Source of the DNA: Amphiscolops sp. MND2022
Lineage: Eukaryota
DNA: 64,000 nucleotides
Reading direction: 5' to 3'
Assembly: GCA_964187785.1 (NCBI GenBank)
Contig: OZ076409.1
Location: 44,952,001-45,016,000, forward strand
The position numbers and the translations under genes are program-made. How positions within the stretch are numbered: the first letter of the stretch is position 1; every line of letters starts with the position of its first letter. The notes under the pieces are model-generated. The model searched no databases. It had not been told where the DNA came from and worked only from the letters and a program-made list of their open reading frames with translations. Shown here one piece after another: positions 10,443-45,262 of this stretch.

Positions 10443-10622
10443 CTTCTTTCATCATGCCAACTAGCAAACATTTCTTGAAGCGGCATGCTTGACAAGCTTT
10501 CCTTCGGTTTTTGCTGATTTCACAGTTGTCATCAGAAGGGCAAGAATACTCTATGTTGCCTTGAACTGTGCGCTTGAAGAACGCCTTGCATGCCTCACAC
10601 GAGAACACCCCGTAGTGATGAC
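10443..10622 (-). CDS. ERR: Estrogen-related receptor, DNA-binding domain exon
   Basis: ttaag|GT ... GAA G|gttagt; reads [61 protein letters not shown]-box CEACKA is typical of ERR. Confidence 0.95.
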
Positions 10623-16113: not shown

Positions 16114-16367
16114 TCGATAGTGAACACCGATTGCGACAGCAAAACCAAATTCCGGTATCTCGCTGAAAAGCGACTTTGCAACTAATAAGCGATGCAATAG
16201 CGATTAACTCGCGAGTGAATGCTTGGCATGGCAAACTTGTCTGGATTACATTTCCGTTGTACAAAATTCAGCGAAGAAGATCATGACTTTCAAAGTTCAA
16301 TATATAATTGTTCCAAAACATCCATTGAACTTGCAAGGTTCGTTGAAAATATGCAAGGTTGACTAAC

Positions 16368-16647
16368 CTGAAGCACAATCTCCACATACAGAGCAAACAC
16401 CCATGGGCAGTTGAGGAACCATGTTAGGGTCAGTTGTTGAATCCCCTCCATGGCTAGTATTACTGCAATGCTTGTTTTTTCTAGCTCTGGGTCCCGGTGA
16501 TGATGAAACAGTTGGAACTGACACACCTTCCTGTTGACTAGATGGGTTCATGCAATAGCGAGGGTAGGAGTGGTAAGATTCAGACGGGTTTCCTGTCATC
16601 AAATTGGAAGGTGGACCGCCTTCGGAGTGCATTGACTGATTGATCAT
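16368..16647 (-). CDS. ERR: Estrogen-related receptor, N-terminal A/B region and start of zinc finger 1
   Basis: ORF ends CSVCGDCASG with donor TCA G|gttagt, in phase with the 10622 exon; an acceptor at 16656/16655 suggests an upstream exon, so the true start is uncertain. Confidence 0.9.
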
Positions 16648-16859
16648 ATCTGACCCTGACAGGAATCAGCAAACATAAAGCGTCATTGATTTCCTTTGAA
16701 GCAATTGATGAGATTGTCGGCGATAATATCCCACTAGAAGAAAGACACGCAAGGGCATCACAGAAACGCTATCAAGTATCTGAAATGCGGAACCCACCAA
16801 AAAAACGGCGCCAGATCTAATAATCTCAATCTTCGTCTCACGGAAAAACAATTGGAACT

Positions 16860-20760: not shown

Positions 20761-23700
20761 AAATCATTTGCAAAACTATACGAGACGATATCATTCTATT
20801 GACTCGCTAATATGAATGCGCTAATCTCGGCTTTTGAATAGGCGGTTTAGGTTAATCTTCGCGTTTTCGAAGCAACCGCATGCCGAGAAAACTTTTTCGA
20901 CAATGGCAGTATGAGCAGTCTTAAATTCTTTGAGGTAATTATATTGGCTATAGGTAATGGATATACTTCGAATGGCGCTAAACGGTCGCTAAGTTTGCTT
21001 TGACACCCCTAACGCTATTAACGGGTCCCCCATCGTTCTTTTGGCGCTGTCTGATTTTTTCCATGAGTTTAATAAATCACCAATGGCCTCTTTTTTCAGT
21101 GGGCGCCTTTTGACTATTTTCACAAAAACAAGATTCGAGAAGCTTGAGCATCCCAACGAACGCATTCATGGAACAATAAATCAGTTTGGGTGATGGAATG
21201 AGCCCTTCCACTTAACGGTCAACTTTATGACAGCGATTTCCACACATATCACGTAATAATTGAACGGAATTTTTCGATGTTCAATGATAGAATGAGCTGT
21301 CTTAGAAGACATTAGACATCAACGCGCTTAATTAATGAAGCGCACACTGAAATTGGTTTGAAAATCTCTTTGGAAGAACAGAAAAGCGCTGTTACAACAT
21401 TTATACAAAAAGACCAGTAGCTAGCTAAAAACAAATTTCGAACTCGATCACCTGAAATAGTTCTTCCATCTTGCCTAGATGAACTTTTCCGTTGTCACAA
21501 ATCAAGATCAAATCTGCATTGCAAGACGCGGTGCTAAAATCCTCCGCTTGCGCTAAGGGAAATGCTCTTATGAAATGTTATGTTAAACTCATCTGCACAT
21601 TCCTGTACAACTCGTTCAATTCGACGTGGGCAACGAAAGAACAAATTTTCAAAAGCTTACAATATTTTGAGCAAAATTATGCTTTTTGTGCACTTTCTAT
21701 CTGTCAGTTACACGATCAATCAATGTACTTTCTCCTTTAGGTGGCATTAGTCAATACATTTTAATGGAGCATTAGTCATTAAGTAATCAGGGCAAAATTA
21801 CAGCGTTGGTCCATGTTTGAAAAAGTCCACCACTATACATATTCATTTTGGTCATTAAATTTCAGGAGCACAACGCCGCGAAAAAAAAAACAGAAATATC
21901 AAATCACAGCTATGCCTCATGAAAGGATCACAAATTCATAAGTAGGGGGTGTGGATAAGTCGGCACAGACAAGCACTTGAATCTTTCAATTTCAATGGTC
22001 CGTCTTTGAACTTCTAACGAGCGTGAAATACCGACGTGGGTGGAAAGTAGCTGCTAATTGATGTCAAAATGAGAAAATTGCTAAGACACCGAAGCAAAGT
22101 CATTGTTCACTTTAAACTGGAAAAAATAACAAGAGAGCTAATGAAGTGTGTCAAATAAAATGTCTATAAAATGACCAATTGAACAGTTGCTGCCAATTCA
22201 ACCTATACAGTTACTAGTGCTTACACGGTGAGAAGGGAAAACGTTAATCGGAACCGTAAAATGTAGTCTAGATGCTACAGAATCCTTGAATTGCAACAGA
22301 CGTTGAACAAGCATCAACAGAATGGTCAACGAGACTCAACGACCAATTGAACAAGAATCCTTTAATGCAAAATCTGTAGTGAAGATTTATTCGAACACAG
22401 AAGAAAACGCAAAGAAGCAGACAAAAAAGACCTCTTTCAGAAACTCCAAAACAAAACATAAGCGAACTTGTCTGGAATAAAGTTTGACCGAATAAAAAGG
22501 ATTATCGTGAGCAAGTACAGACAAAAGAGCAAGTTTTATACAGACAAAAGCACATCGCCAATGTTCGTGTTGATAGGGGTGCTTTTGTCTGATAACCATT
22601 ATGAGGCTGAATGGCTTGGAAAAGTACTGACGAAAAAAATTATCGAAACAAAACTCAGAATCGCGAAAACGGGGGCAAGGATGAAAACCTGCTGAGATAG
22701 CAAACAGCTATGATTATTTATTCAATATTTTTGGTAGATTCGAAATACTTTACTAAAAACGGTACGGATTTTTGACGAAACTCGCGAAACTCGATAGAAA
22801 ACATTACTTAACCCAAAAAAAGGAACATGTGAAAAAAATTGCCCTAGCGAAGTTATTAATGTGAAAGTTATTGAAAAACGGTGAAAAAGAGCTTGATTAA
22901 TAACAATCTTCCAAACATCATGGTGCATTACGTGACCATCTTGACCTGGGTTACAAACTAAGCCCACCTGAAACATTTAATCATGTCATTGACATTTTCA
23001 ACAGCAAATCTGTGGAACTTTCTATTATGCAACTAATTTTTGGAACTTTCTCTTATGTAACTAAGTTTGTTTTACACCTTTATTTGATTGAATTGTTGCC
23101 TATGAATTTGTTTCTGAGTTATTCACTTGATCAAGTCCACCCATCAACATCGGGTGCAAAACATCAGATCAGATTATAATTCAGTCTTTGAGATAATTCT
23201 TTGCCTTACGCCGCTCGGGTCATGAGTTATGACACATCTAAAACTAAAAATTTTCATTAAAAGTCAGGAACCAAAATTGAATGATAGTGTTTGAATTGGA
23301 TGTGATTCATCTTATGCGACCAAAAAGGAATTTTAACAAACTATCAACCGCCCAAGCAATCCTGATAAAATTATACGCCAGTGTTGTTCTACGTACGTAG
23401 CAAGAAAAGAAATTGGACAGATTTAGTTTTGGAATAAGTTTTCAGTTTTTGTAATAAATTGATCATTCTGAATATCTACAATAAGCGTCATTCCAAAAAG
23501 ACTTACTTTCTGAGACTAATCAACCAAAAAAGTTATGCTGAAAAACATGAAGACACCGAATTGCAACATCTTCGGTTGCTTCAGGAAAGTCCTCAACCCC
23601 GAACCCTAAAAAACGATTGTAGCTCGAGCTACAATCGTTTTTTAGGGTTGATCAGATCATTGCCTGTACTTAAGCACAAAATTTTTACCGAAGCAGCCAA

Positions 23701-25676
23701 AAACCAGCACGTTCACCAATATCGCTACTTCTAAAAAACAAAGAAGTCCAAACGAAATTAACTGGCAACTTTCAAACCAACTTCGGTATCTTTTGATCAG
23801 TAAATTTCTCGCAATTAATTTGTTGATATAACTTTAAAATGTTAAATGCCGAAACTTCAAAAGTTGATTGAGTTTTCGACGTCTTTTTGGAAAAACGAAA
23901 AGTGAAAAGAAAAAAGAACGCCGATGGTTACATATTAATTTGCGAGTGTTTCGCCTGATCAACCAAACTGAATAACTAAGTTGAGCATATTCCAATTTAG
24001 TGAGAAACTACCGACTCAGGAAGCTTTGAAGGTATGAAATATTGATGTGCGCTACACCGAAACTACTACTTTAATGTGCGGCACGGCACCACAAAAAGTA
24101 TATGCGGGAAAAGCTTGTAATAATTTAATCGTATTTTCAGATTATAATTATTCAGAAGACCCTCTAGCTTGAGCTCTAGACAGATTTGGTGATTTTTTTC
24201 ATTTCAATTCTCTCGCTTAGGAAACATGACAACGCAGCTCACGGAAGAGGCAATAAAAAGCGTGTAAGATGCATATGTTTATATTTAGGGGGGATGTTAC
24301 AGTGTGTTGTCAGCACTTCAAAGTGTGGTCGGCGCCTGTTGCTTCTAGTGTGACAACAGCAACAACTTGTATATATACAGTAAAAGAAAAAAGAAAGCAA
24401 CAACAGTATGGAAGCAACACAACAAGCATAGGCAAATGAAGGAATGGAGCAGGAGCAATTAAGTGGCATATGTTTACCTGGTTCAAAACTCGATAGTACG
24501 GCGGTAATTAGGAAAGCAGTTGAGAGAGCGCGGAGACCGCTAATGACTATATTTGCATGAGACGATCAATGCCGCCATTTTGTGAAGCAAATTCAAAAAG
24601 TCTAATGAATTCACAGCTTGTCACAAAACGATGTTCTCTTCGCAGCAACGACGGGCGCTTCCATTCAATTCAACCAACAACAATAACATGAAACGAAAAA
24701 AGCATTACACAAAAGCTAACAGCGCCACAACCACACTTTATGAATACCTATTCTCAATTTGAAACAGGTTGCATTTGTAGCGTTTGTGCAAGAGAAGAGC
24801 AGCTCAATCTGCCATCGATGCACCAAAAAGTACCATTTTTATTCATTACACTTTTTTCTACAGTGAAATGTGACAGTACTCATCATATTGCTTGAAATGA
24901 TTCCAACTATGCTTTTCTTGCAAAAACGATATCGATGATGGTGGTTTTTCTACTCATGAACAAATTGAGGCGAGGGCGAGATTGATGTTCGCGCTCTTTG
25001 TAGAGACAACAAACAATGTCACTGAGGAAGGTCTAGTCAAAGCTTCTCGATATTTCAAGAGAATAATTCGAGCACACACGTGAAACCTTCCAATGCACGT
25101 GGGATGCATTTTTCGAGACGCTGAAAGGCCGAATTGCCATGCGACAGCCAAGCCAGCGTTTGAAATAATTTGGTTGATGGTGCTTCAAAAATTAGCTAGA
25201 CTGTACGATCATTTGGAATAACATAAAAGCGAAAATCGGACCCGTCGAGACTCCGTTATCTTTCTGTATTTGCAACAAACATCAATTCCACAGATTTTTT
25301 TTAAAAATCAAATCATGAAAAAATCCCAGCTGTGAATCTTTCAATTCCGACTAGAGTTCACAAAACAATTTCAACGTTTGAATTTTGCACAAGAAGCGCA
25401 AACGTGCTACGATTCACTGAAAGTATCCAAATTTTGGACAAACCTTTTTTTACGCGGATAAAAGAAAATATTAATGGTGAATGGTAGTGACCTCTCACAT
25501 TCTTACTGTAAAACATTAGAAGCTCTGAGCGAACTATCAATTCGTAAACGCTCACTCGTGTAGCAGTCGAAACGTTCAGGCAACTGAACACAGTACGCAT
25601 CAACTACTTGGCCTTAGTAGTTTTATTAGTTTCTGTAAAATGTGGACCTTCCAGTGTGAGGTCTGTGGTATGAAAA

Positions 25677-26762
25677 ACAAGCCGGGAACGGCCCAATTCG
25701 GCGCCATATCGAAGGCTCAAAAATAGCAAAAGGACTTCAAAGTGTCAAGTATTCTCTTCTACAGTACTCGCAAGAGGAAAAAATTAAAAAATTCGAATTT
25801 TTTTTCAATTTTTTTTGGTCCCCGGGAAGTCACATAGTGCCGAAAAATGTAAAAGGGGACCTCAAAAAAGCCTAATTAACCTCTATCTCAAGTGCCAGTA
25901 GAAGTAGTGTGCCATTTAGTGTTAGTTCAAGTCAGCTTATAAAGCTTATAATCTGTCCCTTAAAATCTGTCACTTGGTTGGTCTTTAAAAAAACAAGCCG
26001 GGAACGGCCAAGTCGGCGCCATATCCAAGGCTCAAAAATAGCAAAAGGACTTCAAAGTGTCAAGTATTCTCTTCTACAGTACCCGCACGAGGAAAACATT
26101 GAAATTCCGAATTTTTTTTCAAAATTTTTTGGTCTCCGGTAAGCCGCTTAGTCCCGAAAAATGTAGAAGGACCTCGAAAAAGCCTAATTAACCTCTATCT
26201 CAAATGTCAGTAGAAGTAGTGTGGCAGTTAGTGTTAGTGCAAGTCAGCTTATAAAATCTGTCACTTCGTTGATCTTAAAAAAGTCACTGCTATAGTCTGC
26301 GTTTTCTACGAAAAGCGCCGACTAAAAACAGTAGAACCAGATGAAACAAGCCGGGAACGGCGCAAGTCGACGTCTCGCTCAAGGTTCAAAAAGAGCGAAA
26401 TTTTTAAAATATTATTTACAAAGAGACATTATTGTAAATGGACATTTCGGAAAAAAAGTATCAGTGCCGAAAAAACTTTGAGCTCGCAAAACGCTTTTTA
26501 GAGCCTAAATCATTCATGAAAGTATTTGACCAAATAAATTTACGACGAAAAAGTCGCACAGTGCCGAAAAACGGTAGGTCTTTTCCACAATTATCGAGAA
26601 ATCTCTTATCAGTCCCATAGGAACAAAAAATAATCGAAAGAGACCACCATCAAAATGCGGAAGCAAGTTAGTTACAACTCATAGAAATCTGTCAGTTCGC
26701 TGGTCTTGAAAAAAAGCCACTACAATAAATGGCTGTTTCTAACGAAAAGCGCCGACTAAAAA
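25677..26762 (-). mobile_element. Cluster of tandem/nested family 1 Helentron-like elements
   Basis: Three ACAAGCCGGGAACGG termini (25677, ~25993, ~26346) and two GCGCCGACTAAAAA ends. Confidence 0.72.
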
Positions 26763-26987: not shown

Positions 26988-27178
26988 TTATCGACTCTTT
27001 TCAGCGATAATAAAGCCGCGATATCGATTTCCATCCGTATCAATCGTGTTCATAGATGCAACCATTTGCTCAACAGGGTACCAGGCACTTTGGAAATAGG
27101 TATCCAAGACTAGCATTTGGTCCGAATCCCTATGATATGCGGCAGCGACACTGAAGTGCCCCAAACCAACGTCAATGT
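26988..27178 (-). CDS. Phytochelatin synthase-like protein, copy 1, exon 3b (catalytic His and Asp, stop)
   Basis: IDVGLGHFSVAAAYHRDSDQMLVLDTYFQSAWYPVEQMVASMNTIDTDGNRYRGFIIAEKSR*; matches PCS GHFS..YH..SD..LILD...W...M.T.D....RGF; putative acceptor ctctag|AC. Confidence 0.87.
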
Positions 27179-27313
27179 CTAGAGTAGCCAGTGATGACAA
27201 GTAAAGTGAATACCAATAACGGAAGTTTAAATAGTCAATTATCTATTCCCTTCAATAAACCGGGACGTTACAATTTTTCAAAGTTACATGTTTTTTCTTT
27301 CATTCGTAGATCA

Positions 27314-27672
27314 GGGGAGCATGATGTCTTGGTTCGAGTATTTGATTTAAACTGAGGCGGTTGGAATCTCTCTGTCAACTCACCGTTGTTGGACATTCAA
27401 CGAAATCTTCATCCCCAGCTAACTGGTATAGCCATGACAAAAAATGACAAAAAATGATGCGTAGGGCGGAGAAAAGCTAAGTTGAAAATGCAGCGGTGAG
27501 TAGTCAGCCTTTGTGACCTTGAAAAAGTCACTTTGAAACCACAGCTTCACAGGCTGCAAATAAGCTACTATAGCTTGCTATGGGGAGATAGCATCCGAAA
27601 GGGTGCCGACTTAGAAAGCAAAAGTGCTTATTCGAGGTCGACCCCGCGGAATTGGGAAAATTACTTTCTTCT
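27314..27672 (+). mobile_element. tRNA-derived SINE, second and more decayed copy
   Basis: Colinear with 15744-16113. Confidence 0.72.
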
Positions 27673-28760
27673 TCAGACAAAAATTTCATTGGCCTATTCC
27701 ATTACGCATTAGACCTCAGGGGTATTAGGGTTAAAGTGTAAAACTATTTGGGTGTCTTCGAGCTCGGCTAATTGATGCTTTTAATTCAACTCCTCAAGGG
27801 GAATTGAAACAATTTTGAAGAAAAAGGATTTCTAACATACCCAAAAAGTGATCATTTGAGCTGCTTCCGATCGATTATTAGTGAAAAAAAAACAATCTCA
27901 CAATTGGGTCTGGTTAAATCAGCCTAAAGTTTATTTTCCGCCTTCACGAATTCATTGCCAAGTGTGTAGCATTTTTTTTCCCAATTCAACTTATTCCTTA
28001 TTCTCAAATATTGTAGTTACCTATTAAAGTTCTTATGTGGATATTTCAGCCACCGTCGCCCAGTTGGCAGTGCGTCCGCCTGGTAGACAGGTCGTGCGTT
28101 CTAACACAGGCTGGAGCCTAAATACCTTCTCAGGAAGTAGGTGGTCGGTATATCTCATGTTCGCCATACCTTTTGCCTTTTTTTTAAAAAAAAAGATGGG
28201 TTTCGAACCTCGCTTTCTCCATTTTTTTTGTGAGGCGGAAAATATCTAGGTGCTTAGCGGGCGTCTTGTTAAATTTCGAAACTAAACTGTAACTCTTTTG
28301 GAATGAATTTTGAAAGATCAAAACATTTCATTAGGCTTTACTTTGTGCTGCTCTCGATAATTAATTCTTGAAACCAAAATATCTCAGAAATCGGCTTCAA
28401 TAATATCAATCTTTCAATTGGGACTAATGCCACAGAAAATTAAGAGGAAATTTATGAAAACTAGAGGCAAAATGCTACTGCATGCTACTGCATAAGAACT
28501 GAGGTGACTGTTTCCTTGCCAATCGGGTGCTTGCGAAAAAATGACTGCTTGCCGAAATGTTTGTCGGTGCTATAGGATGTTTTTCAAAAAAACCTTCAGC
28601 TCAGAACTAATTTTATTCCAATAATTCTCCAAACTATTTTCAAAATAGTCAAGAAATTTATTTCCGATCAAGGATCTCTCAAAAACAAAAAGAAACTCCA
28701 AAAATGAACCCACTTCGATCAATCTGAAGGTCGTGAGTTTTCGAATTACCCCAAATCAAA

Positions 28761-30110
28761 ACAAGCCGGGACCGACCCAAGTCGGCGCCATATCTAAGGC
28801 TCAGAAAGAGCAAAAGGACTTCAAAGTGTCAAGTATTCTCTTCTACAGTACTCGCAAGAGGAAAAAATTAAAAAATTCGAATTTTTTTTCAATTTTTTTT
28901 GGTCCCCGGGAAGTCACATAGTGCCGAAAAATGTAAAAGGGGACCTCAAAAAAGCCTAATTAACCTCTATCTCAAGTGCCAGTAGAAGTAGTGTGCCATT
29001 TAGTGTTAGTTCAAGTCAGCTTATAAAGCTTATAATCTGTCCCTTAAAATCTGTCACTTGGTTGGTCTTTAAAAAAACAAGCCGGGAACGGCCAAGTCGG
29101 CGCCATATCTAAGGCTCAGAAAGAGCAAAAAGACTTCAAAAAGTCAAAGTATTGGTGAACTGAGGACCCTTTCATGAGAAAAATTGTAAAAAGGTCTCAC
29201 AATGCCGAAAAAACTGAAAGGGATGAGGATTCTTTGGGATTTTCCAACATCCATTCTGTCGCAACACTCCCAAACATTGAAGAGGGCACTTTGGTGGGAA
29301 AAAATTCGAAAAAAAGTCGCACAATGCTGAAAAACTGAAAGGGGGATCCTTTAGACTCGCCCGGTAATGTATGTTAAGCTGAAAAAGCCTTTTGGTTCAT
29401 TTTCCAGGGCCAACAGGTGCAATTTAAAATTTTGTAGAACTTTTGGTAGAACTCTTTTGGTCACTTCAGGTGTATCGAAAAACAAGACGAGAACGTCTGA
29501 AGTCGGCGCTATATCTAAGGCTCAAAAAGCGCAAAACATTTTTATTGGAAAAACTTGAAATTTTTTTTCCGGAAAATCTCGCATAGTGCCGAAAAATGTA
29601 AAAAAGGGGGACCCTTTGGGACTTATTAACATACATTCTGTTGCAAAATAACAAAAAACTCGAAGGGTGTACCCTTTGGAGACATAGAAAAATTTTCGAA
29701 AAAAAAGTCGCAGTGCCGAAAAAATCCAAAGGGGGGGGGTGGATCCTTTAGGCTAGTCCGGTTTTGTAGGTTACGTTAAAAAAGTAAAAAAATGAAAGGG
29801 GGACCCTTTGCACTAAGTTTGCTTTGGCCGGACTTGGCTTTAGGTGGTTTCAGAAATATTTCTAAAAAGTGGACCGATCAGTGTGAGGTTACTGGATCAG
29901 TGTGAGGTTACCATAGTATGTGGTCTGAAGAAAAAAGGTCACTGCTATAGTCGGGCATTTTTCCTTAAAAGGAAAACGCGCCGACTAAAAAAGGTCACTG
30001 TTATAGTCGGGCATTTTTCATCAAAAGGAAAACGCGCCGACTAAAAACACTGAACACTAACGAAAAGCCATGACTATAGTCGGCTCTTTTCAAGAAAACC
30101 GCCGACTAGA
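28761..30110 (-). mobile_element. Cluster of nested family 1 Helentron-like elements
   Basis: Termini at ~28761, ~29077, ~29482; stacked GCCGACTAAAAA ends at 29980-30110. Confidence 0.72.
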
Positions 30111-30608
30111 AATAAAGTGCGAAAATGAGTGAAATCACTTTGACGAAAACACTTTTAGTCAAGAATTTCTCTAAAATGAGTTCAATTCTCGAAAATTGGC
30201 TTTACCCAAATGAATCTAAAGGACCATTCCGCTTGAGATTTCTGCCAAAGGAAATAATTGGAAAATTTTTTGAAAATTGTCAAAGTTGGCACTTTCGCAA
30301 TTATTGCCACTTTTGGACCATAGTTTCTAAACAAAAACAAAACGCGAAATCAGCCCCAGATGATTCAAGCCCAAACTTGAAAAACAATTTTTTTACAAAA
30401 TGGAAATTTTCGGCATTTTGATGTGGAGGGAAAACTAGACGATATGTAACCCCAATCCATGGAGATTTTTGCTATTTTCAAAAACTGGAATAAAATTTTT
30501 CAATAGCCAAAATCACAATTAAGCTATCAAAAGAATGAACTATGAAAGGTCTACCATTGTGCTTTGATGAGCCCCAGTGGCCAGGCGCCCCAATCTTCAG
30601 AATTCTAG

Positions 30609-30940
30609 TTTTAGTCGGCGTGAAGTGAAAACGCGACTATTATAGTGACTCTTTTTTTTTATAGTGACCCCTTTCAGTTTTTCGGCGTTGTGAGACTTTT
30701 TTTTTCCTAAAATTTTTTACTCTCCAAAGGGTCCCCCCTTCAACTGCGACAAAAATGTTGACAATTTCGGACGTGTCCCCCCCCCTTTTAGCGCGCCACT
30801 CGGTCCATTTTTTTGAATATGTAATTTTTTCGAAAATTTTTCGATTTTCGAGTACTATAAAGAATACTTGACACTTGGAAGTCTTTTTGCTATTTTTGAG
30901 CCTTGGATATGGCGCCGACTTGGGCCGGTCCCGGCTTGTT
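30609..30940 (+). mobile_element. Helentron/DINE-1-like element, family 1
   Basis: TTTTAGTCGGCG ... GCGCCGACTTGGGCCGGTCCCGGCTTGTT. Confidence 0.72.
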
Positions 30941-31878
30941 TCCTGAACCGCCGAGCTTCGCGGAGATTGTATCAAAAACAGCACATTATGTGGTTTTGCT
31001 GCACGAGGCACTGTTGTGTAATGGTATACAGTTGCCGTTTTAAATGCACCAAGAACTGTTCAGAAAATTGGATTTTATAAAAAAAATTCTTGAAAAATGT
31101 AACTATTTTTTAACAAAAACAGAATTTTCTCAACTCCGGGGAAAATGAACTTTTTCTAACTATTCCGTTGGAACCAAACAAAGTACCGACAAAGGATAAA
31201 TTTAAACTGTGCCAAAAATATGAGCAGCTGGTAAAATGATTCGGATGTTTGTTAACGGCTTTAAAGCATTATTAGGTTAATTGGCGTTAATACACCTACG
31301 GAAAGTTATCAGTCGTGAAAATAAAGTGGCCAGCCCAGCATCACTTTTGGCAGAATTTTTGAAACTGATGCAATGGTTTTATGACAATGAAAATGGCTTC
31401 CAAAAATCAATCAAATATTCCGTTCGAAAAACAGCAAAATATTACCATGAAAACTACAGAACAATTCTGAATGAACCTCAAAAGTGATTATTTCGAAGTA
31501 AAATCTACGGGATGAAACAACTCTATTTATAAAAGTTCCTGAAGTGATGAAATTCCGGACAGACAATCCAAGCTTTGGAACCTTGAAGGAGGCACCTTTG
31601 ACATGGAATCTTTTGAATGCTGTCAAAGCTCTTACAAAATTACTCAGTCAAATGTCTAAACTCGCTCACTTCCGGCAATGATTTTCATCTTACTAGCTGC
31701 CGTGAGTTATGTAAACAAACAGTCAACTCCGGTTAATTCGTATCCGGATAATTCGGATCTTCGTTCGATTCGTATGTATCTGAGACCCCATTTCGCGACG
31801 GGCAAAGTAATATCATCCGGATAATTCGAATTTCTCATAATTCGTACTATTTTATTCGATCCCTAGCGATACGAATTA

Positions 31879-34713
31879 CAGTACGTTCGTTTTGTCTATG
31901 CAAGTGTCACTGAAAAAAGAAATGTAGATTCAGTGTGTATTGAAACATATTGAAACACATTTTGAATGCTTACATTTTTTTTTACAAAGTAGCATGAAAT
32001 TGTTTTCACGTGTTTTAATTAAAATGCAGGAAATGAATTTTTGCAAAATGAAATTTTAAGTGTTCGTTTTGTTTAGGCAACTTTACTTTATGAACATTTA
32101 TTTAAACCATTATTGAAGTTATTCACCCGAAACTTTTACTATGGGCAAGAAACAAGATTTGACATCGTCTGAAAAAGACGAAATTGTTCGTTTATTTGGG
32201 AAAGGAATATCAACATTGCAAATAGCCAAAGATGTGAAGCGAGATCTTCGGACCATCAAATCATTTGCTAACAACTCTACCAAAGTTCGTACAAATGGGA
32301 GAAGGGAATTTGCAAAGTTACAAAAAGAAGCAAGTCACTTTTGGCACGAAAATTGAAGCAAAATCAGTTATCAACCAGTGGAAAATTATTTTGTGAAGCT
32401 GGCATTCAAAACTGTGGTCGGACACTTAGATGTTAAATTCTATCAACAATTGGAAAAATAGTTCAACCAATTCGCCAACCTCCTCTGTCTAAGTGCATGG
32501 ATCAAATCCTGTAGCCTGGGCGAAACAATACATGAAAGTAGATTTGCGACGAGTTATATTTACCGATGAATGTCGGGCCACATTAGATGGACCAGATGGC
32601 TTCTGTAGAGGGTGGGTGCATACCGCAACTGAAATTCCACGTAGGCTACGTCGCCAGCAAGGTGGTGGTGGAGTAGTTTTGGGCCGGTATTCTGTATAAC
32701 AAAGTAGTAGGACCATTTAGGGTCCCTCAAAATGGATTCCAATTCCTACCAACTTTTCTTACGGCAAAATTTTAAACCATGGTACCACGGCCTACCACTG
32801 GACGAGAAAATCGCATGCATGACAATGCACCTTCGCATGCTGCCAAAAATTCAATGTCATATCTGGAGAGTATTGGCATTTTTGGGTCACGATTAATGAA
32901 CTGGCCACCATCATCACCGGATTCAAATCCCATTGATAACTTTTGGGGTATCATCAAAAGAAATGTTTATGCGGAAAACAAGCAGTTTCATTCAAAGGAT
33001 GATCTGTGGAGAGCTATTGTCAATGTTCCTAACGAATTGACCCAAACAATAAAAAAACTGACCTCCTCAGTTGATCTTTATATCGGTACTGATTCGGATT
33101 CTTTATATAGTCACCGATACAATTACTTTATGGTAATTGTATTTCCCGAATTTTGGAAAAAAATCGTTTTTTGTCAAAAGCAAATGAATTTGCATAAACA
33201 AAAAGAACAGTTTGTTTTTTAAACTCTAAAGTTTGGAAGGAAATACAGTTACCTGTTTTCTGTTGCTTTATATATACTTATGATTCGTTCAAATAAAATG
33301 TGTTTATTAAACAGAAGTGTTTTTAGTCGGCGCATTTTAGTAGAAAATGTGCCCGACTCTTACAGTGGGTAGTTTTTTTAGACGAAAGGTCCACTTTTTG
33401 TTCATTTGTTAAAAAACCTCAAACCTCAACAACTTCAAACCTCAACAACTCCAACCTCAGAAGCGCGTCCAAAACGAAAAGAAAAAACAAAACAGACGTC
33501 CAGAACCTCGAAAACACACTAAGGATCCCCCCATAGCCCCACTTTTTTTCGGTACTATGAGACTTTTTGAAACTTTTTGGATTGCACCAAAGGGTCCCCC
33601 CTTCATTTGTTTCGATATTTTGCAACACAATGGAAGTCAAAAAGGCAAAAGCGTCCCCCCTTTTACATTTTTCGGCACTGTGACACTATTCAAAAAATCT
33701 TTTTTGGGAAATTTTTTCATGTCCCCAAAGGGTATCCCCTTCAATTAATTTCATTTTTTGCAACCAGCTGGAGTTTCACAAAGCCCGAAAGGTCCCCCCT
33801 TTTCAATTTTGAGCCTTAGATATGGCGCCGACTTTGGCCCTTCTCGGCTTGTTCTTATTTCATTGAGAAGTTCTGACAAAAAATTTACTGATTCGGATTC
33901 TTTATATAGTCACCGATACAATTACTTTATGGTAATTGTATTTCCCGAATTTTGGAAAAAAATCGTTTTTTGTCAAAAGCAAATGAATTTGCATAAACAA
34001 AAAGAACAGTTTGTTTTTTAAACTCTAAAGTTTGGAAGGAAATACAGTTACCTGTTTTCTGTTGCTTTATATATACTTATGATTCGTTCAAATAAAATGT
34101 GTTTATTAAACAGAAGTGTTTTTAGTCGGCGCATTTTAGTAGAAAATGTGCCCGACTCTTACAGTGGGTAGTTTTTTTAGACGAAAGGTCCACTTTTTGT
34201 TCATTTGTTAAAAAACCTCAAACCTCAACAACTTCAAACCTCAACAACTCCAACCTCAGAAGCGCGTCCAAAACGAAAAGAAAAAACAAAACAGACGTCC
34301 AGAACCTCGAAAACACACTAAGGATCCCCCCATAGCCCCACTTTTTTTCGGTACTATGAGACTTTTTGAAACTTTTTGGATTGCACCAAAGGGTCCCCCC
34401 TTCATTTGTTTCGATATTTTGCAACACAATGGAAGTCAAAAAGGCAAAAGCGTCCCCCCTTTTACATTTTTCGGCACTGTGACACTATTCAAAAAATCTT
34501 TTTTGGGAAATTTTTTCATGTCCCCAAAGGGTATCCCCTTCAATTAATTTCATTTTTTGCAACCAGCTGGAGTTTCACAAAGCCCGAAAGGTCCCCCCTT
34601 TTCAATTTTGAGCCTTAGATATGGCGCCGACTTTGGCCCTTCTCGGCTTGTTCTTATTTCATTGAGAAGTTCTGACAAAAAATTTCACTTGCATAAACAA
34701 AACGAACAGGGTG
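31879..34713 (+). mobile_element. Decayed Tc1/mariner transposon of DD37E (TRT-like) type
   Basis: MGKKQDLT HTH start at 32141; FTDECRATLDGPDG, RRQQGGGGV, MHDNAPSH-...-WPPSSPDSNPID (37-residue spacing); imperfect TIRs GTTCGTTTTGTYTATGCAAGTG with inner repeats near 32062 and 33190. Confidence 0.85.
33087..34684. repeat. Tandem duplication, 2 x 799 bp
   Basis: 33087-33885 and 33886-34684 appear identical; ORF track repeats at a 799 offset; each unit contains a family 1 element. Confidence 0.95.
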
Positions 34714-34821
34714 ATGGTGGATTCCACTGTACTGAAGAATGGGTCAGTCTTTTGGTACTGAAAAAAAGCTTTTTCATAATATTATAGCTTAAGCAGAAGT
34801 AATGCAGAAACTGGTCATCAC

Positions 34822-34923
34822 TGAGAGTTGGAGCCCAGAAATTGACAATCATCACTCGATTCACATTTTGTTCGTTGGAAATACAAGTCATGAGTTGGCC
34901 GCGTAATACTTCCGGACTGCGTT
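34822..34923 (-). CDS. Phytochelatin synthase-like protein, copy 1, exon 3a (5' of the TIR insertion)
   Basis: ttaag|AA CGC...; ERSPEVLRGQLMTCISNEQNVNRVMIVNFWAPTL, colinear with paralog; putative donor A|gtgatg lies inside the TIR. Confidence 0.8.
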
Positions 34924-35253: not shown

Positions 35254-35409
35254 CACTCATGTGATGAGAGCCACCAAGACAGCCAAAGAACTTGATAATA
35301 TTAGAAGCACAGGCTAGATTCATTCCATTAATTTCAACCACTTTCGGGTCGCACACCTCCTTGGCAAGATCGGAGTTACCAACTAAATCTGCCTCTCTGA
35401 TTTCACCCT
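35254..35409 (-). CDS. Phytochelatin synthase-like protein, copy 1, exon 2
   Basis: tttag|AG ... AGT G|gttaga; EGEIREADLVGNSDLAKEVCDPKVVEINGMNLACASNIIKFFGC...; 156 bp, colinear with 42528-42683. Confidence 0.82.
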
Positions 35410-35934: not shown

Positions 35935-36127
35935 CAAAAACATTTAAAGCAGACAAAGCGCATGCAGAAGAGCAATAACCACAAAAGGAATTGCCATCTT
36001 GTTCATGGAAAAAAGGTGAAATAGTTTTGTAAGCACTCTGATTTTTCTGTTCAGCCTCCTGTAGAAGTTTCTGACCGTCAAGCGAAGCAAGCAGAATGCC
36101 CGTGGTACTAGCCAGTCCACGGCTCAT
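35935..36127 (-). CDS. Phytochelatin synthase-like protein, copy 1, exon 1 (catalytic Cys)
   Basis: MSRGLAST...FHEQDGNSFCGYCSSACALSALNVF; QxxxxxCG motif of PCS; 193 bp, same length as paralog exon; donor G|gttagt. Confidence 0.85.
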
Positions 36128-38432: not shown

Positions 38433-38564
38433 TTAATCTTTCTCAACAACGATGAAACCTCGGTGGCGACGTCCATCATAATCGATGGTATTCATAGCTG
38501 CAGTCATTTGTTCAATGGAGTACCACGCACTTTGAAAAAAAGTATCCAAAACCAGCAATTGATC
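38433..38564 (-). CDS. Phytochelatin synthase-like protein, copy 2, exon 3, 3' part (probably disconnected; copy 2 may be a pseudogene)
   Basis: DQLLVLDTFFQSAWYSIEQMTAAMNTIDYDGRRHRGFIVVEKD* resumes exactly where 41823 stops. Confidence 0.83.
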   Translation of the reverse strand, partial: DQLLVLDTFFQSAWYSIEQMTAAMNTIDYDGRRHRGFIVVEKD

Positions 38565-41500
38565 AAAAAAAACACTGTATTTCCTTCATTAATAAATGAC
38601 AATAAAATAGTAATTTATTTTCAGAAGGTAGTGTATTTACATTTTTTTTAGTTTAAAGTAGGAAAGAGGTATCATTAAGTTTTGCAAGAAACAATACAGA
38701 TAATCTATCGAAAGCGATATTCACTCCAACATTTTTTTCCATATTCGAAATTGTCTTTTTCACTTACATATTTGTTTAGGAAGTATTGTTTGATGTTTTT
38801 TTTGGTTGTTATGTAGGTACATTTCCCAATTTTTAGCTTGTCAGGTAACTCGTTCCATATGGGCACTGTTTTATTGAAAAAGCTTTTCTTAAGAAAGTCA
38901 GTTTTGCATTGGATGTTGAAGTAGACTTTCTTGGTTCGTTCGTGGGATCTTATGTCACCGGTAGGAAATTTCATTTTCCCTGCAAAAGCCGGAAGTTTTT
39001 TGTTTTTCCATTTCCAGTAGAAGTTGGCATTTTTGCTTTGAAAGAGATATCGGACTGGAAGGATATCATGCTGAACTTTGAGATCTGATGAATGATCATA
39101 TTTTAAACGGTTAAAACATGCTTTTATTCCCCAATTTAACTGTTTCTCTAAAGTGGTAAGAAGGTTTTCTGAAATTCCGCTTAGTAAGATAGCTGAGTAG
39201 TGCAAGTGGCTCACCACTAGGGCGTTTAAAAGCAGTTTCCTGGTTTTTTGGGGGAATATGTCTCGTACAGAGTACAGACTTTTTATTCCCAGTGCCATCT
39301 TGCGGAGGATATTTTTGATCTCGATTTGGTAGTTCAGATTTTGATCCAGATAAACACCGAGATATTTCGCATTAGAGATTGCCGGAATTATTTGGTTGTG
39401 AACTTTGAGTTTCAGTTTATTCATCGAATCATTTTTTGCTTTTTTACAAAAAATTATAAATTCAGTCTTGCCAGCATTGATGGTCAACCGGTGACTTTCA
39501 AAAAAGAATACTAATTTCTTCACATTTTGTTCAAGTGAGGCTATTGCTTTGTCGATGTTGCTATCTGATTTGAACACCATGGTATCATCTGCGTATTGCA
39601 AAAGATTGCAGTCATTTTGAACCTCATGCTGCATATCATTAACGTAGATGTTGAATAGTAATGGACCGAGTACGGTTCCTTGAGGAACACCTTGGTATAG
39701 TTTTATCCAATCTGAGTGACAGTTTGGAAGTGTTACTTTTTGGTATCTTTCGGAAAGAAAACTTCGTATCATCGAGATTGACATCGGGTCGAAGTTATAT
39801 TGCTTTAATTTATTTAACAAGATTTCATGCGATATGGAATCGAAGGCTTTTGATAAATCCAAGAAAGCTGCTGCGACATTTTCGCCATCGTCTAAATTTT
39901 TCCTGATAGTTTCAGTAGCATAAAGTAATGCATCGGTTGTTGAAAAACGTGCTCGAAAACCAAACTGTGTTTCGCTTAATAAATGATTTTCCTCCAGATA
40001 CTCATTCATTTGTTTTCTTAGAACTTTTTCGAAAATTTTTGATAGGGCAGGGGTTATTGAGATGGGTCGATAATTGCATGGGTCTTCTCTGTTTCCCTTT
40101 TTATAAATAGGAGTTACCAAAGCGTGTTTCAAATGATTTGGAAATTTTCCTTCCATGATGAAGGCATTGATTAGGTAGCAAAGGGGCTCAGCAATGACGT
40201 TTCTACAGTCTTTCAAAACCCATGCAGGAATACTACACGGTCCTATAGGTTTATTTTTATTAAGACATAATAGCTGTTTTTTGCAGTCATAAAGACTGAT
40301 GGGTTGAAACGAGAATACTTTTTTCGTGATTTTTGTTTCGGGTATTGTTGGCGGATCGTAAGGCCTAGCAGTCCCCATATAGTCCCCTAATTTTGAGAAC
40401 CGAAAATTTAGTAGGTTTGCAATTTTCTTTTGGTCTGTTACATGGTCGCCGAAACAGTTCTTTAGGCTTGTTATTTCAGTTTTCGTTCGCCTTGCATTCC
40501 TGGATTCGTTTATAAATTTCCATTTGTCCTTTTCCGTAGTCAGGTTGTTGAAATTTGCTATTTGATCTTCAAGGCGGTTTGCTTCGAGGTTTTCAAGGAA
40601 AACTCGTTTAAGTGATAAGTAGGTTTGATCAGTAGGATGCATACTTCTATCTAATTTTCGGTAGAGTTTCTTTGTTTCTTGGCTGACCCAGTTTTCGTGG
40701 ATTGTAAGGCTGCTTTTGTCGTTTCTTATGAAAACTCTTTTTTTTTGGAACACACTGTTTTATAGCATCTTCCAGAATTTGTGTGAAAATAGTAAACATT
40801 CCTTCGGGGCAGCTTTGATTGTAAAAATTTCCCCAATTACTACGACTTACTACATCGCGTAGTGTGTCTTTGTTGTAGTTTGATTTGTCGAATATCTCTT
40901 TTATAAATGCTTTGCTTTTTGATTTCATTTGGATATCAGTTATACAAACGGTAGCTAAATGATCAATGTCCGTGTTTTTTCTAGTTCTAAGCGGCGTATC
41001 GCAAATCATAGTTTCAAAGTTTTCATTAGATTGTAAGTCAGTGATAATGTAGTCAATTAAAGATTTTGAGTTATTTTGTATTCTTGTCGGGCTTGATGTG
41101 TTTAGTATTCGAAAACCATATGGGACTGTAATTGTGTCTAAGCTTTGTTTCTCTGTGGGGTTGAGATAGTTGATGTTATAATCACCCATCAACGTGATGG
41201 GTTTATTCTCGACAATTGCATAGTCGATACTAGTAGATAGTTCTTCAAGAAAAGCATCAGTAAGAGACTTTTGTGGATTGTAACTGATATTGATAAGTTG
41301 TTTTCGTTTCATTGATGAGTTGTTGTTCAGGTTACATTCAACCCATAGGCTTTCAAATAACTTCTGATTTAGATGATTGAGGTCTTTTCGTTCTTTCGGA
41401 TGTAGAGATTTTGGTACTAGGAGCATAATTCCTCCACCTTTTTTGTTTTTCTGTTAATTCGAAATGTTTCAAAATGTTCTGATTTCATTTCCCAGAGTTT

Positions 41501-41822
41501 CACATGGTCGTGATCTTTGAGCCATGTTTCAGTGAAACCGTACACAGTATTTCTACCGAGGTCATTTAAGAGTGTTTCAATTTGGGTTCGTTTCTGGGTC
41601 AGACTTTGACAGTTAATATTTACATATTTTAGTTTTGTTTTATTTTTGGAGAATGTTTCGCAAACGAACTTGTATATTCGGCATGGACCGGGATTTTGTT
41701 CTATGTCACCAGCACGGTTCAGTAGCACTCGGTGGTCCCAGTAATGAGGTTTAGTGTTTGGTAACTGGTGGCTCACATGGTGAGACCATTCATGTTTCAA
41801 CCCATCAGTGATGTTTCAACCC
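38565..41822 (-). mobile_element. 5'-truncated CR1/L2-group non-LTR retrotransposon (2A-like peptide, APE endonuclease, RT)
   Basis: Three overlapping ORFs (41417-41800, 40647-41426, 38705-40753) with FTETWL, MGDYNINYL, SLIDYI, NYRPIS, FLDLSKAFDSI, GVPQGTVLGPLLF, QYADDT; frameshifts lie in homopolymers; short (T)GAT duplication at the ends. Confidence 0.93.
38705..40753 (-). CDS. LINE ORF2 reverse transcriptase region
   Basis: 682 aa ORF with canonical non-LTR RT motifs (YADD). Confidence 0.92.
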   Translation of the reverse strand: MFQKKRVFIRNDKSSLTIHENWVSQETKKLYRKLDRSMHPTDQTYLSLKRVFLENLEANRLEDQIANFNNLTTEKDKWKFINESRNARRTKTEITSLKNCFGDHVTDQKKIANLLNFRFSKLGDYMGTARPYDPPTIPETKITKKVFSFQPISLYDCKKQLLCLNKNKPIGPCSIPAWVLKDCRNVIAEPLCYLINAFIMEGKFPNHLKHALVTPIYKKGNREDPCNYRPISITPALSKIFEKVLRKQMNEYLEENHLLSETQFGFRARFSTTDALLYATETIRKNLDDGENVAAAFLDLSKAFDSISHEILLNKLKQYNFDPMSISMIRSFLSERYQKVTLPNCHSDWIKLYQGVPQGTVLGPLLFNIYVNDMQHEVQNDCNLLQYADDTMVFKSDSNIDKAIASLEQNVKKLVFFFESHRLTINAGKTEFIIFCKKAKNDSMNKLKLKVHNQIIPAISNAKYLGVYLDQNLNYQIEIKNILRKMALGIKSLYSVRDIFPQKTRKLLLNALVVSHLHYSAILLSGISENLLTTLEKQLNWGIKACFNRLKYDHSSDLKVQHDILPVRYLFQSKNANFYWKWKNKKLPAFAGKMKFPTGDIRSHERTKKVYFNIQCKTDFLKKSFFNKTVPIWNELPDKLKIGKCTYITTKKNIKQYFLNKYVSEKDNFEYGKKCWSEYRFR

Positions 41823-41983
41823 ATCAGTTCCCTTATTGTATGCCGCAGCCACGCTGAAGTGTCCATAACCAGGCTCTATGCCCAAATCGGGAGCCCAGAA
41901 GTTGACAATCATCACCCGATCCACCGTGTGCCCATTAGAGACACACGTGATGAGCTTGTCACGTAAAACTTCCGGTGTGTGTC
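41823..41983 (-). CDS. Phytochelatin synthase-like protein, copy 2, exon 3, 5' part (interrupted by LINE)
   Basis: ttcaag|GA CAC...; GHTPEVLRDKLITCVSNGHTVDRVMIVNFWAPDLGIEPGYGHFSVAAAYNKGTD, then LINE sequence. Confidence 0.83.
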
Positions 41984-42527
41984 CTTGAAATAATTAAAAT
42001 ATCTGTCAACTGGAGTTCAAGTTTATGAAGTGCGAAAAAGGAAACAAAATTGAGCGACGTCATAAGTGTTTCTGAGGAACCAATTGTTTTTGCTGCTCAT
42101 TTTGAAGGTGAGTGTCGTCACAAAAACTGTCACTAGTTAGAAAACAGACTCAGGCATTTAGAATTTCTACACGATGTAATTCGTGATGGCGGAAGGTTTA
42201 GTGCGTAAGTTCAAAGGAAGGAAATTTCCTTTCGATTCCCAAACAAAAGGTACAATTTTAGTGCTTGAGAATCTCCGACATTGCCTTCGAAAGTTTGCTA
42301 TCTAATGTATATACGAGTAAATATAGCACTTTGAAGTTTTCTACAATGGAAGTCAGATGTACAGAGATTTGTACAACTTTCGAGTTTCAAGTGAAAATTT
42401 GAATTCAGTGGAAATTTGAGAAAACAATCAAGTTGAGATTTGGCTGTATCTTATCAATACCTCTCTCTAACGAACGTACAAGTCAAATCAAACAATCCCG
42501 ACTTAACCAATGAAAACAAATTCTTAC

Positions 42528-42683
42528 CAATCATGTAGTATGAACCATCACGACAACCATAAAATTTGACTATATTTGAAACTATTTCCAGACGCATTCC
42601 GCGCATCCACACATTTTTTGGGTCATACACCTTCTTAGCTAAGCCAGAATCATTCATAAGGTCTGCTTGTCTGACCGTCTTTC
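42528..42683 (-). CDS. Phytochelatin synthase-like protein, copy 2, exon 2
   Basis: tttag|GA AAG ... ATT G|gtaaga; GKTVRQADLMNDSGLAKKVYDPKNVWMRGMRLEIVSNIVKFYGCRDGSYYMI. Confidence 0.82.
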
Positions 42684-42857
42684 CTAAAACTCAAATACTT
42701 TTCGTCTCGAGTATAAAAACTATGTTTTGGAAACTTCATAAGTAAAAGAAATGAATAAATAGCAGCACTTGCTTTTAAACGAGCATAGGTTTCAGAAATT
42801 TTACACTAGATTTTTCACTAACCATTTTTCCCGACTTTTAGAAGTTCGAATTTCTTA

Positions 42858-42984
42858 TACAAATATTAACAGAGCAGATGATATGGGATTGCTGTGCATA
42901 GTCGAATTATGTATTCTTAATTTGATCCTACATAATTCGACTATGCATAGCAATCCCATATCATCTGCTCTGTTAATATTTGTA
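42858..42984. repeat. Near-perfect hairpin (56-bp arms, 15-nt loop), probable TA-flanked MITE
   Basis: 42858-42913 is the reverse complement of 42929-42984 with one mismatch. Confidence 0.9.
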
Positions 42985-43459
42985 GAATCTGTGATTGATT
43001 ATTACTGCAAGTCGCCAAGATCTGGGAGCTTGCGGGGGGATATGTATCGTAATGTGTGCAGGATCGATGAGTTGAAAATTTTATAACTATCACACCACAT
43101 CTTTAGTGCCCTAAATGTAAGAGCGAAGCGACGTGTCTTTACTTGACCAGCGACAAGCTTTGACGAATGCTGACCTGGCAAAGCGCCCCATACAACCAAT
43201 TTCGGTTTTTAAATTTATAATGAAATTAATATTTCCGATCCTGTATAATTCGATTCTAAATAATTCGTTTCTTGAGAGGAACCTCGATGATATCGCGTGC
43301 AACTAGCATCGTACCACAGCATACCAAATGACGTGCTGTGCTATAATGATTGAAAACAAGTAGAATTTCAGAAGTTTTCCCAACGAAGGACCGAGAAAGG
43401 GGATTGCATCCATGATGAAATAATCTCGGGATATAATGCAAGTCTGATAAAAAACTAAC

Positions 43460-43652
43460 CGAAAACGTTTAGAACAGATAAGGCACATGCAGCCGAAGTG
43501 TAACCACAAACAGCCCTGCCTTCCTGTTTATGGAAACAGGGAGATATCGCTTGGTAAGAACTCTGGTTATTTAGTTCTGCCTGCTGCAGGAGTTTCTGAC
43601 CTTCAGGCAAATCTAAAAGAACGCCCGAGGTGGAAGTGTATACTCGTGTCAT
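43460..43652 (-). CDS. Phytochelatin synthase-like protein, copy 2, exon 1
   Basis: MTRVYTST...FHKQEGRAVCGYTSAACALSVLNVF; donor G|gttagt; clear paralog of 35935-36127. Confidence 0.83.
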
Positions 43653-45262
43653 GACCGGGCAGACAACAAAACGCAAAGCGCACTTTCAACACATATAACT
43701 TAGCCACCGCTAACGTACCCCACAGTAGCCATGAAATAACTGAAAACGAAGGTGACTGTAAATCGATCAGAATCTTCCCAAAATACAACGAATGTTTCTG
43801 GAAGCAGCAGAATGTTTCAAGATACTACTCATAGTACAATGTTCCTGCAGAAACATTGACAATTAAACGTTGAAAGCTTCCATTTCGATCTCCATCTTAT
43901 TTAGTTTGCTTTGAAGCGTCATATACATTATATTAATATAGATGTACATTAGTTAGGGTAAAGTTTTACCAACAGAAAGCGAAACCCTTTCAAGAAGATT
44001 GGATAGTAAAAGTCCAATTTATTGTAACTGAGAGCCAAAAATGCTTGGAGAGTTACTAACTTGTCTTTAATGATGGAAAAATTCAAAAACTCTTTATGCA
44101 ATAAAAAGTGAATTAGCAGATTACCAAACTATTCGAAGCAAAACGAAACTTGAGAAAGTGAAAGATGTACGTACCACTTTGGCCCTTGAAAGCAAAACTT
44201 TCCTTACTCGCTGAAACATCGTTCATACATTTTTGCCAACTTGAAACGGTATACTGTATCAAGAAATGTGAAAATACGGTTAATATTCAATGCCATATAA
44301 TGAACTGACAGAATTCGGCAAATTTTTAGATCCTCTCTGGAGCATCCATTGAGTTGAAAGCATAAATACTAAAAAAGCCGATTCGAATTTGCTAATACGA
44401 AATGATCACAGGACAGAAAATTAAAACTTTTTAATCGCAGAGTTTTTTCAACAACTAGGAAATGAACATTCAAAAGTTGAATATAATTGAACATTACTAA
44501 CAGAGTGGGCATAATTTTTGCATAGCAAACAAAGATCGAACACTTTCACAAAAAACAACCTAGAGATCATTCGGGCTGAAAAAAAGCTCTATTAAAAATT
44601 GAGGGCAGAAGATCAGCAGATGCTTTTTCCGCAAAACACTGAAAATTTTAAGAACATTTAAAAGCTTTCGAATTATAACATCTGAAGACACTCGGAACTT
44701 TGAAGGCATTATCAACTTTATTACAACAAGTTACTAGAAACTACTAAGTTACTAACAACTTTCTTTCACAAAATCCCCAAGCTGGAAAAGTTTTTTAGTG
44801 GGATACACTTTCTCCCAGCACGTTAAAATTATGTTAGAAGGAAGATACTTTCTTGAAATTAGCCAAATAAGGCATCCTCGGAAAACATAAGTAACTGCTG
44901 ATGAGAAAACATAGGACCAAAAACATCAAAATGTTTCTGGTCGCTACGACTTCTCGGCATCAGAAACTAAATGTGGGAACTCAACCGCAAAGCAGAAAGC
45001 ATTACTGGTTGTGAAAAAATGAGAGACTAACCTCTTAGAGAGATACATAATAAATTATTTTCACTGTGGTATACTTGGAAAAAAATGACTGAATTTTGAG
45101 AAATAAGATAGAAATTTGTGAGATGTGTTGAGCTCGTTTATTTTCCAATGTTGACTGCTTTAGTCAATTTTCAGCAAGCAAGTAAGCGACAAAAGAAGAA
45201 GAAAAATGACAGACTAATCTCTAACTACCTGTCAACAGCAAATGAAATTTGTTGAACGATAG

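Follow-up and report, generated by a model that had tools for sequence, protein, structure and literature searches.

The stretch of DNA from a marine acoel analysed here (Amphiscolops sp. MND2022, C1:44,952,001-45,016,000; 64,000 nt, hereafter the window) contains two genes for phytochelatin synthase (PCS), an enzyme of metal detoxification, on the minus strand, copy 1 and paralog 2. The last exon of copy 1 is split by an old insertion with hAT-type ends and an 8-bp target duplication, which is absent from paralog 2 (Table 1). As the coding sequence of copy 1 is intact despite this insertion, the element is likely removed as a new intron.

Table 1. Features of the two PCS genes, the insertion in copy 1 and its nested contents (window positions; a slash marks a splice site; TIR, terminal inverted repeat; LINE, long interspersed nuclear element)
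Feature	Positions	Strand	Remarks
PCS copy 1, exon 1	35935..36127	-	ATG at 36127; catalytic Cys in FCGY; donor G/GTTAGT; PF05023 E 5e-7
PCS copy 1, exon 2	35254..35409	-	156 nt, length equal to paralog 2 counterpart
PCS copy 1, exon 3	34822..34923	-	predicted end; final 2 nt (CA) TIR-derived
PCS copy 1, exon 4	26988..27178	-	catalytic His in GHFS, Asp in VLDT; stop TAA; PF05023 E 9e-12
Predicted new GT-AG intron	27179..34821	-	7,643 nt, phase 1; splicing inferred
Host AG directly past duplication, predicted acceptor	27179..27180	-	
Target duplication, intronic copy	27181..27188	.	AGAGTAGC on +; 6/8
Non-autonomous hAT-ended insertion	27189..34823	.	7,635 bp; no detectable transposase remnant
hAT TIR, acceptor side	27189..27202	+	1 mismatch
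hAT TIR, donor side	34810..34823	-	provides predicted GT at 34821-34820; 23/25 identical to C4-type hAT family end
Target duplication, exonic copy	34824..34831	.	AGAGTTGG on +
Nested dispersed repeat	27305..27673	.	18% from family's commonest letters; may be separate subfamily
Nested dispersed ~240-bp repeat, old	28034..28275	.	12% from family's commonest letters
Nested repeat	28758..29153	+	97% identity to a copy beyond the insertion, at 25674-26068, at a distance of 3 kb
Nested dispersed repeat	30668..30945	.	4.5% from family's commonest letters
Nested dispersed repeat, old	30955..31290	.	15% from family's commonest letters
Nested Tc1/mariner-type element	31876..34713	+	decayed DDE_3 open reading frame; contains a repeat; 3.3% from family's commonest letters
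PCS paralog 2	38433..43652	-	exons 43652-43460, 42683-42528, 41983-41823 + 38561-38433; continuous at hAT site
LINE (RVT_1), very young	38562..41822	-	interrupts paralog 2 last exon between catalytic His and Asp

Joining the copy 1 exons (36127-35935, 35409-35254, 34923-34822 and 27178-26988) gives 642 nt, i.e. 213 aa plus a stop codon, and the predicted junction reads WAPTLNIDVGLGHFS in the joined translation, in agreement with an initial annotation of this locus that had proposed a frame- and length-preserving junction from 34821 to 27179 with one D>N change. According to the PF05023 profile, which matches exons 1 and 4 above its cut-off, and to the alignment with homologs, the complete Cys-His-Asp triad is present in the predicted protein, and exon 4 is 59% identical to an open reading frame (ORF) in the cluster of Convolutriloba macropyga XP_075247163.1. 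With the phytochelatin synthase family PF05023 and its solved relative Alr0975 from Nostoc (2BTW, 6TH5) the acoel protein shares the papain-like catalytic domain with its Cys, His and Asp, being a single-domain protein of 213 aa. Usual phytochelatin synthases have SP after the His, whereas the acoel proteins, for which glutathione transpeptidase activity is predicted, have SV or AV at this position. The RefSeq PCS model of C. macropyga (XP_075247163.1, P0151) contains, between its exons 2 and 3, an insert of ~52 aa. About 23% of this model, apparently this non-PCS insert, is matched at 66-75% by 13 unnamed ENA ORFs; the insert is apparently an exonised repeat or an annotation artefact.

The block in copy 1 lies where the initial annotation had placed a block with inverted ends and a degenerate 8-bp duplication, and both its coordinates and its translation were right. 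In the whole window CAGTGATGAC occurs once on the plus strand (27189) and its complement once (34814-34823), the inverted ends can be followed over 14 bp with a single mismatch (27189-27202 versus 34810-34823), and the flanking octamers agree at 6/8 positions. The TIR 14-mer has 48 exact matches in the genome (1.07 Gb searched), inverted pairs among them, as compared to 23 for the reversed control. Loci fetched around TIR matches and transposase hits contained in all 16 paired relatives, only part of the TIR matches being paired and examined; the extension of 18 unpaired ends and two transposase loci to 10 kb contributed two paired copies. Twelve of the 16 have perfect 8-bp duplications and four have 7/8, i.e. 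4 mismatches in 128 duplication positions; the L195 pair, with a 5/8 duplication and a 4-mismatch TIR, was dropped as likely chance. The ~70 bp that follow the acceptor-side TIR weakly resemble the 5'-type end of the C4 family (z 5.2, best of 58 ends), and the C4 element itself codes for a transposase that is broken but includes the hAT dimerisation domain. This domain (PF05699) is found in loci L074 and L094, the latter also with a zf-BED match just under the cut-off. Thus, TIR, 8-bp duplication and family transposase all identify the ends of the insertion as hAT-type, as initially annotated. Within the insertion no transposase remnant was detected (tblastn best E 1.4; profile search no better than control regions), i.e. 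it is a non-autonomous or decayed hAT, and no sister copy of either end, and hence not its own subfamily, was found in genome DNA searches at their sensitivity. A mis-assembly as origin of the block was considered and is not upheld, duplication and TIRs being coherent. Elsewhere in the genome, unbroken hAT transposase ORFs of 587-589 aa are present at L093:1304-3793, L094:1015-2775 and L095:1429-3189, L093 having a perfect 8-bp duplication and TIRs closely related to those of the insertion, and L094 and L095 being nearly identical; these families have probably been active recently. L079 (G000:C12:3832500-3842499) contains five head-to-tail units of ~1.8 kb, each with a hAT 5' end and a transposase fragment; these form a tandem array that consists of copies of part of a transposon.

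The exon of paralog 2 is continuous at the insertion site, and so are ORFs from outgroups. P0003 and P0153, which belong to the cluster of C. macropyga XP_075247163.1 and come from ENA contigs of 312 kb and 89 kb, are single ORFs of 77 aa across the site, and P0005 is a second outgroup ORF unbroken there. As P0152, from the same cluster as P0003 and P0153, stops just past the exon-1 donor, these outgroup ORFs look like gene calls on genomic DNA. Since paralog 2 and two outgroup ORFs are unbroken at the site, the insertion represents a gain; judged from the ORF calls, the intron would be absent in the outgroups, where the initial annotation had considered that an older intron at this position might turn up. 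An old intron that was later invaded by a hAT is not upheld, given that the TIRs lie exactly at the intron ends and that outgroups appear to lack the intron.

The statement of the initial annotation that paralog 2 is continuous holds at the hAT site, but a LINE that it did not mention interrupts the exon ~20 codons further on (41822/38562). This LINE is 99-100% identical to 32 of the 39 copies listed and differs from the commonest letters of its family in 1 of 736 columns. As it is very young, the intact exons of paralog 2 need no rescue and serve as an internal control. Copies of this LINE family end with CAGTG followed by a run of T rather than poly-A, and an 18-bp duplication is found at the truncated 5' end of the paralog 2 copy. 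An in-frame GT...AG option exists here as well (41820 and 38575, TGG/GTTGAA to ATACAG/T), which would add four residues beside the catalytic Asp; this predicted option is plausibly due to chance.

The insertion itself holds further elements. The Tc1 element recognised in the initial annotation is borne out by a DDE_3 match, whereas its labels "SINE" (short interspersed nuclear element) and "Helentron" are tentative: a dispersed ~240-bp repeat does exist, but ARAGORN finds no tRNA in the supposed SINE. Divergences of the nested repeats refer to 11-16 copies per family, with ~0.1 indels per substitution. The 396-bp repeat at 28758..29153 differs from its copy 3 kb outside the insertion by 3.3% (pairwise), the next full-length matches being 87-88% identical and one partial match 93% over 282 bp among the 40 scored of 4,839 candidates. 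The pair is thus likely a local duplication or conversion, and being local it implies that at least 1.7% divergence per lineage accrued in place. Moreover, the duplication of this insertion is mismatched at 2/8 positions versus 4/128 in the other 16 copies. Taken together, the insertion is old, with at least 1.7%, and probably 3-15%, divergence in place, and the absence of a sister composite favours, without proving it, an arrival of the nested repeats after the insertion. The nested Tc1 contains an exact 800-bp tandem duplication (33087-33886 and 33886-34685), and a tandem duplication of 2.9 kb with 99.3% identity is found at 45259-51015; both are recent events or assembly artefacts.

Such an age makes the state of the coding sequence informative. 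In a neutral simulation the probability that ORF, start and all six GT/AG sites stay intact is 0.22-0.34 at a divergence d of 0.017, 0.05-0.12 at 0.033 and below 0.007 at 0.08; with d weighted by the mismatches in duplication and TIRs alone (one grid point extrapolated) it is 0.005-0.04. Copy 1 retains 26 of 27 testable conserved columns, four of the 31 conserved columns having been set aside as both paralogs lack the consensus or differ from it there. There is no excess of amino-acid changes in copy 1, while the simulation predicts ~37 changed residues at d = 0.08. The comparison of the paralogs that the initial annotation had proposed yields a nonsynonymous divergence (dN) of 0.27 and a synonymous divergence (dS) of about 1.6, i.e. 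dN/dS of about 0.17. Thus, as far as can be read from the DNA, the copy 1 gene looks alive after an old insertion. A search of sequencing runs with exon 4 and its 3' flank listed no run with RNA, a blank that counts neither for nor against expression. The same applies to the comparison of exon 4 with longer proteins, in which none of eight candidates scored, since the NF-YC exon of the window, taken as control, likewise brought up no annotated or RNA-derived protein of this species. None of eight window ORFs was present, by identity, in the protein collection, and a scan of JGI metagenomes gave a single locus that was weak and uninformative.

How the gene could have survived is suggested by the ends of the element. 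On the minus strand the intron would start at 34821 with the donor CTCA/GTGATG and end at 27179 with the acceptor CTACTCTAG/ACATT, and these GT...AG ends are in frame. Splicing there would swap AG for CA, converting CTA GAC to CTC AAC and Leu-Asp to Leu-Asn with unchanged length, at a loop position that is variable among homologs (Gly, Gln or Lys). Of the six AG dinucleotides in the vicinity of exon 4, the proposed acceptor has the most pyrimidines upstream (13/19) and is the sole one in phase with the TIR donor. With 17/26 pyrimidines the acceptor end ties for second among 44 TIR ends and contains two YTNAY-like sites, but other ends score alike, so that an adaptive pyrimidine tract is not upheld, the acceptor end being indistinguishable from other TIR ends.

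Several observations weigh against an intron with these ends. GT occupies TIR positions 3-4 in every copy of this hAT family, thus the geometry requires an AG alone, and an AG is found directly behind the duplication in 4 of the 32 orientations used as controls and occurs at ~5% of coding positions. The exact geometry is therefore weaker evidence than initially claimed; it contributes a factor of about 5-15, which falls short of proof. The donor TCA/GTGATG has neither G at -1 nor G at +5 and matches U1 at 4/9 positions as compared to 5-6.5 for the four native PCS donors, whereas all eight native donors read by eye (four from PCS, one from NF-YC, two from a nuclear-receptor gene, one from a tetraspanin) have both. 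The main metazoan donor classes are NN//GURAG and AG//GUNNN (PMC11732430); TCA/GTGATG lies outside both, i.e. it is not a canonical U2 donor class. At the start of an intron of 7.6 kb, a donor of such weakness poses a real problem. New introns in Drosophila have weaker splice sites that are backed up by nonsense-mediated decay (PMC2809761), a precedent that softens the objection but does not remove it. Furthermore, the exon structure of the outgroups is known from ORF calls and protein records, not from DNA, and as dates for the insertion the older nested repeats count only on condition that they came in afterwards and were not carried along as cargo. At the firm in-place bound of 1.7% per lineage the probability that a neutral gene stays intact is still 0.16-0.34, and the lower number of lineage-specific residues in copy 1 than in paralog 2 (14 versus 24 at 204 sites compared with C. 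macropyga) is not significant (chi2 2.6) and mostly reflects the time before the insertion.

With a donor this weak, an AG found next to the duplication in 4/32 controls and a probability of 0.22-0.34 for an intact ORF at d = 0.017, copy 1 might instead be a pseudogene, knocked out by a younger hAT that carried old repeats, its frame being intact by luck and the AG a coincidence; a second intact paralog was present until very recently. However, a duplication mismatched at 2/8 is unlikely for a young insertion, and over the ages compatible with it a neutral frame would rarely stay intact. The genome searches revealed no sister composite of the insertion, and copy 1 lacks the surplus of amino-acid changes of a decaying gene. 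Moreover, as exon 4 has only two matches genome-wide, copy 1 and the LINE-broken paralog 2, the haplotype would be left with no working PCS. We therefore regard a pseudogene as unlikely, albeit a possibility to be taken seriously.

Splicing mainly at another junction could likewise keep the gene functional. From exon 3 the frame stays open for 45 codons into the insertion, a further point against the exact junction, and reaches a phase-1 GC donor (TAT/GCAAGT at 34692) that matches U1 at 6.5/9, is in phase with the 27179 acceptor and whose use would bring in 43 codons derived from the element. Upstream of exon 4 the frame has no stop as far back as 27242, and the AG at 27243 could be the partner of a phase-0 donor. 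Yet, a 43-aa insert or a large deletion would hit the short loop that precedes the catalytic His and hardly varies in length among the aligned homologs. By our own estimate 43 codons stay open by chance in ~5% of cases, and the GC site lies within the younger Tc1 and so could not have provided the initial rescue. GC donors, moreover, usually need an AG before them. Accordingly, we give this variant only a small chance.

Finally, function might be retained at the DNA level, either by somatic excision of the hAT or if an empty allele is common and the sequenced haplotype a rare old null. The unbroken transposase ORFs, one of them with closely related TIRs, would be a possible source of excision activity. 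When a hAT excises, however, footprints and part of the duplication usually stay behind, and only recombination could keep an old null haplotype from decaying. The assembly holds only the two exon-4 matches and no empty-site copy. This escape is thus very improbable.

Based on these considerations we favour intronisation of the element, i.e. the gene has likely survived as initially annotated, while splicing at the given junction is a prediction. A hAT transposon inserted into the last exon of copy 1. As its TIR begins with CA-GT, splicing at the GT of the TIR would leave CA in the exon, the acceptor would be the host AG just past the second duplication copy, and the intron would comprise the element, one duplication copy and this AG. 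Paralog 2 may have buffered the early stage after the insertion, and the spliced intron may then have been a neutral landing site that grew to 7.6 kb via nested insertions. Given the weak donor, splicing would probably be inefficient, unspliced RNA being removed by nonsense-mediated decay. That the insertion is intronised, irrespective of the junction, we consider probable; that it is spliced exactly from the GT at 34821 to the AG at 27179 is somewhat less certain, although still the better bet. A rough estimate combines a prior of 0.5-3% for an old exonic hAT being intronised in a duplicated gene with factors of ~50 for the intact gene and ~8 for the geometry, arriving at 0.7-0.9.

The window contains further features. 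A neighbouring NF-YC gene (Pfam) is located on the minus strand (63535-64000 and 55048-55300); the 99% match of its exon is an ENA-only ORF cluster, and another cluster, which includes a Symsagittifera roscoffensis RefSeq protein, has a representative with 85% identity to this exon. A nuclear-receptor-like gene with zinc-finger motifs recognised by eye lies at 7900-16700 on the minus strand, fragments of a second element resembling non-long-terminal-repeat (non-LTR) retrotransposons, with zinc-finger ORFs, are found at 56442-57995 on the minus strand, and two palindromes, both perfect or nearly so, lie at 23602-23649 and 42855-42987.

Intronisation of a transposon is a mechanism already known, from the maize element Ds and from introners, but this route has seldom been caught in animals. 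Ds, itself a hAT with an 8-bp duplication, is said to have given rise to a de novo intron, reportedly described by Giroux and co-workers in 1994 (Giroux et al. 1994), being spliced from the RNA at or near its ends; the Ds alleles are reportedly recent mutants with mostly imperfect or low-rate splicing, whereas the insertion in copy 1 looks old, the gene is intact and the host is an animal.

Introners, as described by Gozashti et al. 2022 (PMC9860276), are elements that supply one splice site, the other being recruited from the duplication or the neighbouring exon without a change in length, and hAT-classified families are listed for plants, fungi and a tunicate, e.g. Salvia splendens fam1, Panicum virgatum fam14 and Styela clava fam1, in Gozashti 2025 (PMC12130899). 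Copy 1 shares with introners a DNA element with TIRs and target duplication in an exon, with one predicted splice site of its own and one from the neighbouring exon, and the insertion lies in a coding exon at a site that is intron-less in homologs (paralog 2; P0003, P0153 and P0005). Thus, the term introner-type chosen in the initial annotation fits the working mode, but not membership in a family: none of the 16 other paired copies lies in an evident exon, the ends of the insertion are single-copy at the sensitivity of the searches, and no similar introns were found, so that an introner family is not upheld for the part of the TIR matches that was paired and examined. One of the 16 is a 348-bp hAT MITE (miniature inverted-repeat transposable element) at L050:1115-1848, which is intronic, ~100 bp upstream of a tetraspanin-like exon. 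The copy 1 case is a single old event, i.e. a one-off putative intron, and with 7.6 kb after nested insertions as compared to family medians of 30-654 nt it would probably be missed by similarity-based searches. In the portions of the supplements of PMC12130899 and PMC9860276 that were searched, the only acoel is Hofstenia in the 2022 genome list, and the literature searches, from which subscription journals are mostly absent, yielded no paper that deals with this locus or with the creation of introns by transposons in acoels.

The origin of introns in animals is still poorly documented. Introner surveys rely on young, similar copies and report introners in few animal groups (PMC9860276). The copy 1 locus keeps transposon ends, target duplication, an intron-less paralog and an extant transposon family together, and, with paralog 2 just hit by a LINE, the splicing of copy 1 may decide on the presence of a working phytochelatin synthase. 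If the intron is real, it would show how weak a donor the acoel spliceosome accepts on a long intron, any hAT with CAGTG ends would have the potential to create an intron at those ~5% of coding sites that precede an AG, and old, expanded intron gains would escape surveys based on similarity. Tentatively, and with considerable reservation, copy 1 might be regarded as a fossil one-off introner, in which a CAGTG-ended hAT became, by way of a donor that lacks G at both -1 and +5, a permanent length-preserving intron whose far end was remodelled into branch point and pyrimidine tract and which has swollen to 7.6 kb.

Single transposon-made introns are known from many eukaryotes according to Mikina 2024 and PMC3443670, the latter tabulating 35 events, with gains by transposon insertion in Oryza, Drosophila, Oikopleura and Zea. 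Copy 1 resembles these cases as a one-off intron gain with transposon footprints. The textbook insertion model, however, duplicates AGGT, whereas in copy 1 the TIR itself would supply the donor, with an exchange of two exon bases.

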